A stretch of 64,000 bases of DNA from Escherichia phage F2. A program made the position numbers and the translations under genes. A model generated the notes under the pieces. The model saw nothing but the letters and a program-made list of their open reading frames with translations, made no database searches and was not told the origin of the DNA. Below, piece after piece: positions 15,568-20,547 of this stretch (within the stretch, counting starts at the first letter, position 1; each line of letters starts with the position of its first letter). The stretch lies in the sequence record NC_054913.1; one strand, written 5' to 3'.

Positions 15568-16575
15568 ATGTTTAAGAAATACAGCAGTCTTGAAAACCAC
15601 TACAACTCTAAGTTTATTGAAAAACTCTACACTAATGGTTTGACTACTGGTGTTTGGGTAGCACGTGAGAAAATCCATGGGACCAACTTCTCGTTAATAA
15701 TTGAACGTGACAACGTCACATGCGCCAAGCGCACAGGCCCTATTCTTCCAGCAGAAGATTTTTACGGCTATGAAATCGTACTCAAGAAGTATGATAAAGC
15801 TATTAAAGGTGTTCAAGAAGTCATGGAAAGTATTTCAACTTCAGTGCCGGTGTCATATCAAGTCTTTGGTGAATTCGCCGGTGGTGGAATCCAGAAAGGT
15901 GTTGACTACGGTGAAAAAGATTTTTATGTGTTCGATATCATCATAAACACGGAAAGTGATGATACTTATTATATGAGTGATTACGAAATGCAAGATTTCT
16001 GTAATACGTTTGGTTTTAAAATGGCACCAATGCTTGGTCGTGGAACATTTGATTCTCTTATCATGATTCCAAATGACCTTGATTCCGTCTTAGCCGCTTA
16101 TAATGCTACTGCGTCAGAAGACCTTGTAGAAGCAAATAATTGTGTATTTGATGCTAATGTTATTGGCGATAATACGGCAGAAGGTTATGTTCTGAAGCCT
16201 TGTTTCCCTAAATGGCTGCCAAACGGTACTCGTGTAGCTATTAAGTGCAAGAACTCTAAATTCAGTGAAAAGAAAAAGTCAGATAAGCCTATTAAAACTC
16301 AGGTTCCATTATCCGAAATTGACAAAAACTTGCTTGATGTTCTAGCTTGTTATGTTACATTAAATCGTGTTAATAATGTGATTTCTAAGATTGGGACTGT
16401 AACGCCAAAAGATTTTGGCAAAGTGATGGGATTGACTGTTCAAGATATTCTGGAAGAAACTTCTCGTGAAGGTATTGTATTAACATCATCTGATAATCCG
16501 AATCTTGTTAAGAAAGAATTAGTCCGAATGGTGCAAGATGTTCTGCGTCCTGCATGGATTGAATTAGTATCATAA
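15568..16575 (+). CDS. rnlB: RNA ligase 2 (RnlB), 335 aa
   Basis: Near-identical to T4 Rnl2 as I recall it; nucleotidyltransferase lysine motif KIHGTN. Confidence 0.9.
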
Positions 16576-16579
16576 CGAA

Positions 16580-16606
16580 AAAGGGACCGTAAGGTCCCTT
16601 TGTTTT
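16580..16606. terminator. bidirectional terminator between convergent rnlB and gene 24
   Basis: agggacc-gtaa-ggtccct flanked by an A-tract upstream and a T-tract downstream. Confidence 0.7.
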
Positions 16607-17888
16607 ATTCATCAATAATAATTTTTGGTAGCTTAACACCTAATAAAACAGACAAATCTGAACGTCCTGCCATTTTATCCATGTCCCCACCATCAATTAC
16701 TCTCGCTTCTTTTTCATCTTTTGCTACTGTGTAAGGATTCGCAGATAAAGCATATCTAACCAATAATCCGATAGATGGTTGCAAGCTTTCTGGATCAACT
16801 ACGACTTTAAATGCACCGACATGTTCCGGGTCATCTAAATCTACTCCTTCAGTGTATGGAGCATAAAAGATGGACCCCACAATTTCTTTTTCGCCGATAT
16901 TTTCTACAACACCCACAATAACATAATCTAACGGACTGTTGGTATCGCAGTAAAGAGGTAATCCATTTGCCAAGAATCCATAAGCATTTTGTGAAAGATA
17001 CTTGTCATCTTCTGGCTTATGTTTTAACCAACCAGAAGCAGCAAGAATAGCAGCTGCACGAGCTGAGGCTACACAAAACGTTGCAGTATAAGTTGTCTCT
17101 TTTTGAATGTGTGATACCATTTCACACACCATTCGATATAATGAACGACCTGCTTCTGGAGCGGATGCATAGCTCAAGTCAATAAATCCGGTGTCAGTAA
17201 TTCCAGTAACTTTATAACGTTTCGATACAGTAATTAAAGACTGAAGAATATCTTTATTAATTTCATCAGCCATTTCAGTAGCAAGCAAATCTTCTAAGAA
17301 GTTAGGGGCATCAAATCCATTCGCTTCCAAATCTTGCGCTAATTCAACCGTGAGGCCAGTTTTAAGTTTACGAGATTTGACTGAAGTTTGCCATTTATTA
17401 ATCTGGAATCTTGCATCAGAAATTTCGCTATCAGAGCTTTCAAATTTGCTTGTTACCGCTGCATCTGAAAATAACCGTACCTTTAAATGAACGACTGCAA
17501 TCTGAAGAGCTAATTCTAGATCACTTTCTTGAATATCTGCAAATGGTGTATCTTCTAACACTTTATAGACGATATTATTATATTTGAAAAAATCGCCTTT
17601 ATTTAGTGTGACTTTTGATTCTTCTGTGAGCTCAGTAATTTTTTCTCGGTCTACATATCCAACTTCACCAGCATAAGTAGCACCAGTTTTAAATGTGAAT
17701 TCGTTATCTGGGTTAAGATATTTGATACCATAAAAAGCAGCAACAGGTTGATTAGTTCTTTGTGTTGCTACAATGTCAGAATATATTAATTTAGTCGTAG
17801 CGCGAGTCAAAGCAACGAGATTTGGGCGACCGATTGAGTTGCTAGTAGACGTTGTAGATTCACGCAATAATTTTTGGATTTTACTCAT
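16605..17888 (-). CDS. 24: gp24 head vertex protein, 427 aa
   Basis: 427 aa as in T4; paralog of gp23; synteny. Confidence 0.9.
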   Translation of the reverse strand: MSKIQKLLRESTTSTSNSIGRPNLVALTRATTKLIYSDIVATQRTNQPVAAFYGIKYLNPDNEFTFKTGATYAGEVGYVDREKITELTEESKVTLNKGDFFKYNNIVYKVLEDTPFADIQESDLELALQIAVVHLKVRLFSDAAVTSKFESSDSEISDARFQINKWQTSVKSRKLKTGLTVELAQDLEANGFDAPNFLEDLLATEMADEINKDILQSLITVSKRYKVTGITDTGFIDLSYASAPEAGRSLYRMVCEMVSHIQKETTYTATFCVASARAAAILAASGWLKHKPEDDKYLSQNAYGFLANGLPLYCDTNSPLDYVIVGVVENIGEKEIVGSIFYAPYTEGVDLDDPEHVGAFKVVVDPESLQPSIGLLVRYALSANPYTVAKDEKEARVIDGGDMDKMAGRSDLSVLLGVKLPKIIIDE

Positions 17889-17918
17889 TGCATTTTTTCC
17901 TTATTGAGAATATAATTT

Positions 17919-17926
17919 TATTTATA
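17919..17926 (-). promoter_or_regulatory. late promoter (TATAAATA) for gene 24
   Basis: reverse complement TATAAATA about 30 nt upstream of the gene 24 start. Confidence 0.7.
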
Positions 17927-17932
17927 AAAGTG

Positions 17933-17962
17933 GTTTACACACAAAAAGTGTTGTGTTACTAT
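17933..17962 (+). promoter_or_regulatory. early sigma70-type promoter (GTTTAC, 18 nt, TACTAT)
   Basis: gtttac at 17933-17938 and tactat at 17957-17962; same -10 core gtgttactatagacc as the regB promoter. Confidence 0.55.
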
Positions 17963-17991
17963 AGACCTATCAAAACATGAGGAGATTAAAA

Positions 17992-18258
17992 ATGAACAAA
18001 TTAAACTTTATCCGTACCACACTTTCTAACCTTGACAAAGACATCAAAGCTCTGGTAGAAAAATTTGGTACCAATCCTAATGGTAATGCAGTTAATGCAT
18101 TGGTTAAGAAATACGAAGCCCTGGCTTATGAAACTGACTTCTGGTGGAACGGTGAATATTCTACCCATACCAAAGACAAATCTGGTAACTGGCTGAAAAT
18201 CCAAGAAAATCGTATTGACTTCCGTGATATCATCAACCGTCGTGTCAAAGCAGCGTAA
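17992..18258 (+). CDS. hypothetical early protein, 88 aa
   Basis: ATG at 17992 with GAGGAG RBS, downstream of the early promoter; no family recognised. Confidence 0.5.
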   Translation: MNKLNFIRTTLSNLDKDIKALVEKFGTNPNGNAVNALVKKYEALAYETDFWWNGEYSTHTKDKSGNWLKIQENRIDFRDIINRRVKAA

Positions 18259-18261
18259 ATT

Positions 18262-18921
18262 ATGAATTATTTAATTTACAAAATAACCAATCTCATTAAT
18301 AACAAGATTTATATTGGAGCCCATGCCACTACAGATGTTAACGATTCTTATATGGGTTCCGGGGTTAACATAGTAAAATCCATAAAGAAATACGGCTTAG
18401 AGAATTTTAAAAAGGAAATCCTTTTCAATTTCGAAACATCTGAAGAGATGTATGCTAAGGAAGCCGAACTAGTTGACGAGGCTTTTGTCATGAGAACAGA
18501 TACTTATAATGCCGCCTTAGGCGGCAAGGGTAATCCTGTTATAGTAGCTTTACAGGAACCTGGGTATCGTGAGATGTTATCCGAAAAGACAAAAGCTGGT
18601 ATGACTGAAGAAGTTCGGGCCAAAATATCTAAAAAGAAATTAGGTTCTAAAGAATCTAAAGAACATCGAGAAAACAAATCTATATCAAATAAAAAGTTTT
18701 ATAAAAATAGAGATTCTCATCTTAAAGGTAGAAAACTATCAGAAGAGCATAAAGCAAAAATTAGAAAGAATTCTAATAAAGGTAAGAAATTTGTATTTGT
18801 GGATATTTCTATTAAAGGTCATGAATTTAACCACTACGATTACGCTGCCGAATTCTTTAACGTATCCGCAAAAACTATAAGAAATTGGATTAATGAACGC
18901 GATGATTGTTTTAAGCTATAG
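18262..18921 (+). CDS. GIY-YIG homing endonuclease (SegD-like), 219 aa
   Basis: N-terminal motif YLIYKITN...NKIYIG; located between genes 24 and 23 where T4 carries segD. Confidence 0.8.
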   Translation: MNYLIYKITNLINNKIYIGAHATTDVNDSYMGSGVNIVKSIKKYGLENFKKEILFNFETSEEMYAKEAELVDEAFVMRTDTYNAALGGKGNPVIVALQEPGYREMLSEKTKAGMTEEVRAKISKKKLGSKESKEHRENKSISNKKFYKNRDSHLKGRKLSEEHKAKIRKNSNKGKKFVFVDISIKGHEFNHYDYAAEFFNVSAKTIRNWINERDDCFKL

Positions 18922-18924
18922 AAA

Positions 18925-18951
18925 CAAGAATGGGAGACCGGAGTCTCCCAT
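18925..18951. terminator. hairpin terminator between the segD-like gene and gene 23
   Basis: tgggagac-loop-gtctccca, 8-bp stem. Confidence 0.55.
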
Positions 18952-18978
18952 AAGGTTATGTATTTTAACGTTAAAGCA

Positions 18979-20547
18979 TTAAATTCCTTTAACGTAGACG
19001 CGTCTAAAGTAAGCGTTCTTACCAAGGCTGTTCAGGATAGACGGCATACCGGACTGGATGCGAGCACCTGGAGCCTGCAGGGAACTTTCAGCAAACGGGT
19101 TAACACCGATACCGTAACGAGTTTTAAAGCCCATTACTGGCTGGAAGTTCTTAGGATCGGAACCACGTAGTGGGGTAAGTGCAACGTAAGGAGCATAGTA
19201 AATACCTGCATCCATTTCGTTAGCGCCTTTGTAACCAACGGTGAAGTAATCCTGTTTAGCATACTGGTCGATGTATACTCGGTATTTACCACCAAGTACA
19301 CCGGCAAATACAGATTTAGTAGTGTCGGTATTAAAACCAGAAGCCAGACCCTGTGCAGCATAAGAAATACCAGTATCAACTGAAGCCAGTACGTTAACTA
19401 CGTTACGGGAAGCGATAATGAAGTTACCTTCACCACGACCGGTTTGACGAGCAATTTCAACTGCTTCTTTATCAATCTGGAACAACAGAGCTTTAAAGCT
19501 TTCACCGGCCCAACGAGCACCACGGATATCAATCGGGTCCTGGAAGTCAAATACACCAGCTTTAGAACCAACGATATTAGTCATACCAGATTTACCAACC
19601 TGAGCGGAGTAGTTAATCCAGTCAACAACTTCACGGTTGATTTCCAGCATAATTTCAGTGGCAAGAATACCGCTCAGTTCAGCATCAGCATCCATACCGT
19701 GTACTGCACGGAGGTCTTGTGCCAATTCGATGGAGTAAGCTGCTTTCAGCTGACGAGATTTAGCTTCAATAACTTGTTTGTCGATACGGAAGCCCATTTC
19801 GTTCCACGGGTTGTCGGTAGAACCATTGAAGCCTTCCTGAAGTTCAGCGATAGAAGTAGCCATACCTTCAGCGATTTCTACCAGTACACCAGCTTCCATT
19901 TGTTTCTTAATTTCAGCATCCAGTTTAGTTGCATCGGTAGCGCCAGCATCGATTGTTACTACAGCGGAAGCTTGTAGATACACAGTACCAGTTTCCTGGA
20001 AGAAGTGAGTATAGATATCACCTACAACGGTTTGTGTGCTAGCAGCCAGAGCTGGGAATTTCTTAGCAGCACCCTGACCAGAGAACATCGCGTCTGGAGC
20101 ATACATCGGATGGAAAGCTTCTTTAGCGTCAGCAGCGATAGGGTCTTTACCATATACTGCACGGAGAGCAAATACCTGACCGGTAGGGCTGTTCATAGGC
20201 TGAACACCACAAATATCGAAAGCGATCAGATTAGGAATAGCACGACGAACCATACCCATAACTGCCGGCCCAATCTGGGTTACTGCACCAGAGGTTTGAC
20301 CTGCTGCGATGTTCTGAGCATTATAACCATGGTCGCCACCAATTTCAGCTTCGGTCAAGAAAGAACCAAATGCCTGAGCGATTTTCTCGTCTTTATATTC
20401 AGGGGATACTTCGAAATCTTTTTCCTGGTTTTCGAAGATTTTAGCGATAATAGCCTGCTTGCTATTAGCGATTTCCGGCAGGCCTTCACCTTCCAGCAGT
20501 TCTTTCCATTTGTCTACGAGCTGAGCTTTAGTTTTGATAGTAGTCAT
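18979..20547 (-). CDS. 23: gp23 major capsid protein, 522 aa
   Basis: Recognisably T4 gp23 (521 aa in T4); synteny. Confidence 0.95.
   Translation of the reverse strand: MTTIKTKAQLVDKWKELLEGEGLPEIANSKQAIIAKIFENQEKDFEVSPEYKDEKIAQAFGSFLTEAEIGGDHGYNAQNIAAGQTSGAVTQIGPAVMGMVRRAIPNLIAFDICGVQPMNSPTGQVFALRAVYGKDPIAADAKEAFHPMYAPDAMFSGQGAAKKFPALAASTQTVVGDIYTHFFQETGTVYLQASAVVTIDAGATDATKLDAEIKKQMEAGVLVEIAEGMATSIAELQEGFNGSTDNPWNEMGFRIDKQVIEAKSRQLKAAYSIELAQDLRAVHGMDADAELSGILATEIMLEINREVVDWINYSAQVGKSGMTNIVGSKAGVFDFQDPIDIRGARWAGESFKALLFQIDKEAVEIARQTGRGEGNFIIASRNVVNVLASVDTGISYAAQGLASGFNTDTTKSVFAGVLGGKYRVYIDQYAKQDYFTVGYKGANEMDAGIYYAPYVALTPLRGSDPKNFQPVMGFKTRYGIGVNPFAESSLQAPGARIQSGMPSILNSLGKNAYFRRVYVKGI

Follow-up and report, generated by a model that had tools for sequence, protein, structure and literature searches.

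A SegD-type endonuclease gene probably inserted at the 3′ end of a resident early-type gene module between genes 24 and 23 of Escherichia phage F2

In phage T4, the endonuclease gene segD lies antisense to genes 23 and 24, its 3′ end abuts the gene 23 terminator, and an early-type promoter-like site (TTTACA and TATTAT, separated by 17 nt) is found upstream of it. The T4 segD RNA has been classed as early, and the SegD protein has been detected (supplement of PMC9697503). Other free-standing endonuclease genes of T4 (mobE and the seg genes) directly follow or overlap the preceding open reading frame (ORF) and have a poor translation initiation region, with expression presumably kept low; the same 2010 review gives middle or late promoters only for the T4 endonucleases, and none for segD (PMC2988022). 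Here we analysed a 64,000-nt stretch of Escherichia phage F2 (NC_054913.1), called the window below, which is of the Mosigvirus type of T-even phages. Its interval between genes 24 and 23 holds, on the strand opposite to these two genes, a gene for an 88-amino-acid (aa) basic protein (the small ORF) followed by a SegD-type GIY-YIG homing endonuclease gene in the same slot and orientation as T4 segD. In T4, TH15 and EK29, segD is the sole gene of the slot and has its own Shine-Dalgarno (SD) sequence, whereas here the endonuclease gene is a second cistron without a recognisable one; and unlike the promoters listed for the T4 endonucleases, the only promoter-like element upstream is of the early type and belongs to the resident gene. 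We consider it likely that the small ORF is part of a resident early gene module, and that the SegD-type endonuclease gene was inserted at the 3′ end of this module.

Comparison of the 24-23 interval (17889-18978 in the window) across T4-like phages, which the preliminary description of this locus had proposed as a check, resolved four states of the slot in Tevenvirinae: empty, with only the small gene, with only segD, and with the two in tandem. The empty slot, present in most Tequatrovirus genomes (EC121 and about 450 records), measures 83 nt and contains only the gene 24 late promoter and the gene 23 hairpin. About 200 records, Tequatrovirus W143 among them, had the small gene only. T4/RB59, Gaprivervirus TH15 and Klebsiella phage EK29 had only segD, preceded by its own SD, and both genes were found in tandem in 36 records. 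These four states indicate that both genes are dispensable accessories. Using the window allele of the small ORF as the tblastn query, we retrieved 131 phage records, and the RB69-type allele detected the family in 238. These comprise about 121 RB69-type, 85 JS98-type and 32 VR7/SP18-type alleles and one Acinetobacter phage, where JS98-type denotes the allele of the window at a threshold of 90% identity or more. The endonuclease was found at 80% identity or more in only 36 records, and so was the whole cassette; from these equal counts, every endonuclease copy adjoins a JS98-type small ORF. Carriers of the endonuclease therefore make up 36 of the 85 JS98-type records, and the 121 RB69-type and 32 VR7-type carriers of the small gene lack it. 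An uninterrupted, endonuclease-free junction was read in 48 records, all with JS98-type alleles.

The insertion was precise. Between the window and SQ17, both Mosigvirus, the flanks were 93-100% identical per 60-nt block (most blocks 97-100%), and the insert and a 31-nt junction were the sole differences. At the left junction, endonuclease-free genomes carry GTTAAGATTGCATAG, and carriers have GTCAAAGCAGCGTAAATT (the window and IME08) or GTCAAAGTAGAGGCCTAAAAT (UP19). Read in codons, endonuclease-free genomes have ...CGT CGT GTT AAG ATT GCA TAG and then TATAGAAACAAGAATGGGAGACC, and the carrier has ...CGT CGT GTC AAA GCA GCG TAA ATT, then the endonuclease gene (ATG...AAGC), and then TATAGAAACAAG, with the end of the small ORF changed from KIA-stop to KAA-stop or KVEA-stop. 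On the right side, the carriers' match to the endonuclease-free junction starts exactly at TATAG, the base after the stop codon of the SQ17 small ORF (query position 45). TH15, which has segD only, shows TAGAGGAGACTAAATT before the same ATG. The corresponding leaders before the ATG are GTAGAGGCCTAAAAT in UP19, a Dhakavirus with both genes, and AAGCAGCGTAAATT in the window and IME08. Thus TAAAWT-ATG is common to the carriers and TH15, and the SD sequence TAGAGG is common to UP19 and TH15. Because TH15 has no small ORF, these matches suggest that the endonuclease brought its own 5′ leader, which would now give the small ORF its last codons and stop.

Alternatively, the diverged 13 nt at the end of the small ORF in carriers could be a selected recoding, or a remnant of a donor allele, that protects against self-cleavage, and not a leader. 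Four of the changes are silent or conservative (GTT>GTC, AAG>AAA, GCA>GCG, TAG>TAA), the small ORF still encodes 88 or 89 aa, and target-site polymorphism beside free-standing endonucleases is well known in T4 (PMC2988022). Against this, the TAAAWT-ATG and the UP19 TAGAGG are matched in the leader of TH15, where there is no small ORF to be recoded, and we regard this alternative as rather unlikely. Pure immunity recoding of a diverged small-ORF 3′ end had been our first reading, and the leader origin was preferred after the TH15 and UP19 leaders were compared. The two origins are compatible with each other, and the putative target is disrupted in carriers either way.

In our proposed explanation, the 24-23 interval would hold a moron-like early unit, with the 88-aa module as the resident, which ends at the hairpin that would terminate gene 23 from the other side. 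A mobile SegD-type endonuclease gene would have entered at the extreme 3′ end of the small ORF, and its apparent 5′ leader would have taken the place of the stop codon there and of the two or three codons before it. The endonuclease gene would most likely be transcribed early, as the second cistron from the resident promoter. A GAGG SD is still present in the UP19 leader, and the window has GCAGCG at this place, which points to an eroded SD; the window endonuclease gene appears to have neither a promoter of its own nor a recognisable ribosome-binding site (RBS). Moreover, no stable RNA structure was found around the endonuclease start (z = -0.5), so that sequestration of the start by a hairpin, as in T4, is not indicated. 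Given the eroded SD and the lack of a masking RNA structure, termination-reinitiation is the most economical way in which the endonuclease would be translated, at a low level, across the 3-nt gap (ATT) between the two ORFs, a gap that had been given as 4 nt in the preliminary description. The probable homing target would be the uninterrupted junction between the 3′ end and the terminator of the JS98-type allele (..GTTAAGATTGCATAGTATAGAAAC..). The insertion would destroy this junction, and a cut is predicted on the endonuclease-free JS98-type allele within about 30 bp of GTTAAGATTGCATAGTATAG. Such a target would account for the restriction of the endonuclease to that allele, as the 3′ ends of the RB69- and VR7-type alleles differ.

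We then compared carriers from different genera. The flanks of IME08, a Dhakavirus, were 95-100% identical to JS98 per 60-nt block (most blocks 100%) outside the junction blocks. This match covers gene 24, the promoter, the small ORF and gene 23, and it stays at 60/60 per block up to window coordinate 18227. The IME08 flanks were just 47-93% identical to the window, apart from the final 60 nt of the small ORF, in which IME08, JS98 and the window are identical. The 5′ half of the IME08 endonuclease gene (18285-18584) was 93-100% identical to the window per 60-nt block and 97% overall, and the UP19 endonuclease gene was 87-100% identical per block and 96% overall. The right flank of UP19 is of the window type through the hairpin to 18991 (59/59), and of the JS98 type beyond. 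As the small ORF is recipient-type and the endonuclease donor-type in both IME08 and UP19, the co-conversion tract on the small-ORF side would be under about 20 nt. The endonuclease gene thus appears to have crossed between Mosigvirus and Dhakavirus with flanking tracts of tens of bases, and such a short-tract pattern is the usual footprint of homing. In addition, the IME08 endonuclease gene (967-1638 of the IME08 locus) is a mosaic relative to that of the window (18262-18921), with a synonymous divergence (dS) of 0.12 in the catalytic half and 0.78 in the linker and DNA-binding half, and its C-terminal helix-turn-helix (HTH) stretch NVTGATIRNWIK matches SegD of Klebsiella phage EK29. This mosaic suggests domain-level recombination between SegD genes.

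The same distribution could also arise if the endonuclease were a domesticated, non-homing SegD and had been spread by ordinary homologous recombination between co-infecting T-even phages. T4 SegD is reportedly non-homing, and the endonuclease-free module crosses genera as well. On the other hand, near-identical endonuclease genes, with flanking tracts of only tens of bases, are found in backbones that differ by 15-50% in their capsid genes, and both domains of the endonuclease are under purifying selection; we give this possibility a minor chance. Several further points weigh against the explanation we favour, that is, a resident module invaded by a homing endonuclease. The activity of the promoter, the bicistronic transcript and the translational coupling in F2 are read from sequence, and the homing target is a predicted one. 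T4 SegD is said to cut a site that does not differ between segD+ and segD- phages, and not to home, and given this behaviour the endonuclease studied here may not home by cutting the junction. The matches behind the leader origin are short (TAAAWTATG, and TAGAGG in UP19), and the junction may instead stem from a small-ORF allele of the donor that has diverged. Finally, the hairpin has no U-run in the + orientation.

The module was also compared between genera. In genes 24 and 23, SQ17 and the window were 88-100% identical per 50-nt block (most blocks 96-100%) to the RB69-type Mosigvirus JS09. By comparison, their intergenic module of about 400 bp, which begins just upstream of gene 24 and ends at the hairpin, was unrelated to that of JS09, and it was 96-100% identical to that of Dhakavirus C6. 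The JS98-type module, promoter included, was also found in Tequatrovirus W143. These results indicate that the small-gene module is mobile on its own, without the endonuclease, and that it behaves like a moron in Dhakavirus, Mosigvirus and Tequatrovirus backbones.

The preliminary description had suggested that the 88-aa gene may be carried along by the endonuclease as its cargo, such as an anti-defence or exclusion factor. It is true that the two genes adjoin on the same strand, 3 nt apart, that all 36 copies of this endonuclease adjoin a JS98-type allele, and that the module has moved between genera, a spread which past endonuclease-driven co-conversion could have aided. Yet about 200 of the about 238 family records have no endonuclease, and some phages have a SegD orthologue in this slot but no small gene. 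Moreover, the small ORF of IME08 and UP19 goes with the recipient backbone, and the family occurs in arrays of rV5-like and Acinetobacter phages without an endonuclease. The cargo claim is therefore not borne out, and we consider it very unlikely. The dependence is probably reversed: the endonuclease would use the resident promoter and probably also the translation of the resident gene, whose 3′ end is probably its target.

Table 1. Features of the 24-23 interval of phage F2 and its surroundings (window coordinates)
Feature	Position	Strand	Remark
RnlB	15568-16575	+	gene map; intact 335-aa ORF
Gene 24	16605-17888	-	gene map
Late promoter of gene 24, TATAAATA	17919..17926	-	exact match, 31 nt upstream of the gene start at 17888
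T-even early-type sigma-70 promoter	17933..17962	+	GTTTACA, 17-nt spacer, extended -10 TGtTACTAT
Shine-Dalgarno GAGGAG	17979..17984	+	read directly; 7 nt before the ATG at 17992
Gene for the 88-aa basic protein	17992..18258	+	full-length phrog_6003 match
Left junction of the insertion	18246..18261	+	last codons and stop of the small ORF and 3-nt spacer, endonuclease-linked
SegD-type GIY-YIG homing endonuclease gene, 219 aa	18262..18921	+	59% identity to T4-type SegD
Right junction	18917..18929	+	TATAG AAACAAGA; homology to endonuclease-free genomes resumes
Hairpin ATGGGAGAC-CGGA-GTCTCCCAT	18930..18951		9-bp stem; terminator call on - strand only
Gene 23	18979-20547	-	gene map

All described elements of the cassette were recovered between genes 24 and 23 at the coordinates first given for them, as a self-contained unit that runs opposite to the late genes and has a strong GAGGAG RBS behind an early-type promoter of the T-even kind. 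The promoter consists of a -35 element (GTTTACA, 17933-17939) and an extended -10 element (TGtTACTAT, 17954-17962). A generic sigma-70 scan of the cassette region showed no enrichment (4 sites against 6.2 expected by chance). We found, in the 64-kb window, eight matches to the motif GTTTAC-N17-19-TAYNAT on the + strand (2877, 15079, 17933, 52553, 56220, 56557, 57114 and 63282) and none on the - strand, where a dinucleotide-preserving simulation gave an expectation of 0.18 per strand and a maximum of 2 in 300 runs. A -10 TACTAT with an upstream TG is common to most of the eight sites. The late-promoter motif TATAAATA is biased the opposite way in the window, with 15 copies on the - strand versus 7 on the + strand. 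Both hexamers of the early promoter are conserved in JS98, IME08, JS09, VR7, TH15 and W143, with a variable spacer, and the promoter was not found in the empty 24-23 slot of Tequatrovirus EC121. The GAGGAG SD is likewise conserved in the JS98, IME08, UP19, JS09 and W143 modules. Taken together, these results suggest that the promoter would be active in F2. Back-to-back with it, seven bases from the -35 element, lies the TATAAATA upstream of gene 24, which is kept in every slot variant read; by the known T4 late-promoter consensus, it would be the late promoter of gene 24.

The preliminary description had further claimed that a hairpin terminator closes the unit. The hairpin itself is stable: the 71-nt stretch that contains it had a folding energy of -20.6 kcal/mol (z = -4.0). 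It does not appear to be a private terminator of the unit, as its T-run is on the - strand, which by consensus makes it the terminator of gene 23. Moreover, the hairpin is present in endonuclease-free phages, and it is kept downstream of gene 23 in T4-like phages of Serratia, Erwinia, Kosakonia, Klebsiella and Edwardsiella. It may also end transcription on the + strand. We also observed that the loop, which varies at base 18941, reads CGGA in two carriers, the window and UP19, and CGAA in the endonuclease-free SQ17, C6 and JS98. IME08, a carrier, has the CGAA loop, so the linkage of this marker to the endonuclease is incomplete; the base at 18941 would nevertheless be of use for scoring co-conversion.

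The identity of the second gene as SegD-like, proposed earlier, was confirmed. The endonuclease aligned with T4 SegD over the full length, with 130 of 221 positions identical (59%, E = 2e-88), and together with the shared slot this shows that it is an orthologue of T4 SegD, which adds a member to the SegD group in a known slot. Identity was highest in the catalytic half (72 of the first 100 residues), and the linker and DNA-binding half was far more diverged, so the target may differ from that of T4 SegD. In profile searches, the endonuclease matched TIGR01453 (group I intron endonuclease) at 56.5 bits against a cut-off of 56.05, phrog_314 at 5e-54 and the PADLOC HEase profile at 9e-23, while the matches to PF19835 (E = 9e-5) and PF01541 (E = 0.016) were both below the Pfam cut-offs. 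The GIY-YIG motifs LIYKIT...KIYIGAH are visible in the N-terminal domain. The C-terminal modules gave sub-threshold matches only (NUMOD3, E = 0.063; HTH_17, E = 0.008), and an HTH-like stretch, AAEFFNVSxKTIRNWI, is conserved with T4 SegD at the C-terminus. The ratio of nonsynonymous to synonymous substitution rates (dN/dS) of the endonuclease gene was 0.03-0.16, indicating purifying selection. Furthermore, a clear footprint of transfer between genera is seen here, whereas the T4 enzyme is reportedly non-homing, and this SegD orthologue can be compared with it in that respect.

Homology and structure of the 88-aa protein were examined as the preliminary description had suggested. The protein matched the phrog_6003 profile with residues 1-88 on positions 1-88 of 90 (E = 1.2e-48), and it belongs to the family of JS98 orf173, VR7ORF190c and RB69ORF188c, which are of the same kind; in the window, the final KAA in place of KIA and the stop would come from the insertion. 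No match was found in Pfam, NCBIfam or PADLOC scans, nor in searches of PDB sequences with the single protein or with the profile. An AlphaFold2 model of high confidence (predicted local distance difference test, pLDDT, 93; predicted template modelling score, pTM, 0.78) showed a helix, a helix, a β-hairpin and a helix, and a fold search with this model matched no known fold. Sequence and fold likewise showed no likeness to characterised anti-defence, exclusion or defence proteins. The possibility that the protein is a detached domain of the endonuclease was rejected, as profile comparison showed no relationship between them.

Within the family, conservation over the full length extends down to about 30% identity across four allele classes, and the residues K3, F6, N30-G31-N32, A45 and Q71 are invariant. 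The window protein is 94% identical to JS98-type, 65-68% to VR7-type and 31-35% to RB69-type members, all in the same slot, and the isoelectric point (pI) is 8.0-9.8 across the family. The dN/dS of the small gene was 0.09-0.12 at a dS of about 0.45, indicating purifying selection. These results show that the small ORF is a real, selected and dispensable accessory gene. That it is a chance or non-functional ORF, with the endonuclease as the only real gene of the interval, has a practically negligible probability, since the purifying selection, full-length conservation, confident model and strong, conserved RBS outweigh the missing family annotation and structural or functional homologue, the truncated copies (41, 51 and 64 aa) and the viability of empty-slot phages.

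In three T-even genera the small gene always sits in the 24-23 slot, and on contigs of rV5-like and Acinetobacter phages it was found within long same-strand arrays of small ORFs, with no endonuclease nearby. An all-against-all HMMER search of the family against 1.8 billion representatives gave 13 matches, about five of which are genuine members; the others were rejected, being long proteins of low complexity or with repeats and, in one case, a chimeric contig. The latter is a 701-bp ENA contig encoding a 160-aa protein, in which an unrelated N-terminus is joined to 34 residues of the small-ORF family, and it is almost certainly a chimeric metagenome contig and not a domain fusion. A scan of viral contigs with single-protein patterns found no relatives of the 88-aa protein. 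Some members are shortened to 41, 51 or 64 aa, against the usual 87-93 (BFVD Q7Y4W1, which is RB69ORF188c; phage mogra, 51 aa; phage 310Ecol104PP, 64 aa), a pattern that fits either a dispensable gene that decays now and then or errors of sequencing or annotation. The tblastn alignments of the 88-aa query ended at residue 72 in endonuclease-free genomes, although these are identical to it up to residue 86, and we took this stop as an artefact of masking or trimming and not as a true difference.

With regard to function, the names ORF188c, ORF173c and VR7ORF190c appeared in no functional study found by our literature search, and a screen of early proteins of Mosigvirus AV110 chose genes by T4 homology, so the 88-aa gene was not included. 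Tentatively, and with low confidence, we suggest that the 88-aa protein might be an early factor that interacts with the host or its defences, in host takeover or counter-defence. This suggestion is based on the early promoter type, the small size and the basic charge of the protein, on the strong purifying selection within classes that are only about 30% identical to each other, and on the fact that the gene is dispensable, has moved into several backbones and occurs in early-type arrays of unrelated phages. In a joint form, the family might represent early counter-defence or takeover effectors of a new fold, whose 3′ end is the site of a SegD-type enzyme that, in contrast to T4 SegD, is actively homing. 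The protein is basic and has a helix-helix-hairpin-helix arrangement with an invariant NGN loop and no structural relative, and the promoter-equipped module moves among at least three T-even genera and occurs in rV5-like Acinetobacter phages. We regard this combination as doubtful.

Phage morons, a concept from lambdoid phages, are extra genes with their own promoter and terminator between the genes of a conserved late operon. Similarly, the ORF88 module comes with a promoter and an RBS of its own, ends at a hairpin, lies on the opposite strand between two late structural genes, and is present or absent between otherwise collinear genomes in three genera. Unlike in morons, its terminator appears to be shared with gene 23, and the phage is virulent, so that no role in lysogenic conversion is possible. 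Compared with the known arrangements of free-standing endonucleases, nesting behind a resident gene whose promoter is of the early type is a modest departure, and the locus is an ordinary though neatly resolved case. Its value is mainly corrective, in that a small gene beside a homing endonuclease is here the resident and probably the homing target, and not cargo. The four slot states offer a clean natural series for studying how an endonuclease invades a transcription unit and how this affects the neighbouring genes. The 88-aa family is, in addition, a cheap candidate for accessory-gene screens, being small, selected, horizontally mobile, early by promoter type and unmatched in fold.

The cassette stretch is 100% identical to the same stretch in Escherichia phage vB_EcoM_JQD51. 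The sequence is already in GenBank, where the two genes are annotated as "hypothetical protein" and "homing endonuclease", and an Rfam search of 17700-19100 gave no match. Beyond gene 24, the window carries an intact RnlB ORF. In JS09, rnlB (RNA ligase 2; JS09 locus 586-1585) is annotated as two coding sequences of 720 and 150 nt, a split that possibly reflects a frameshift or a sequencing error in that record.

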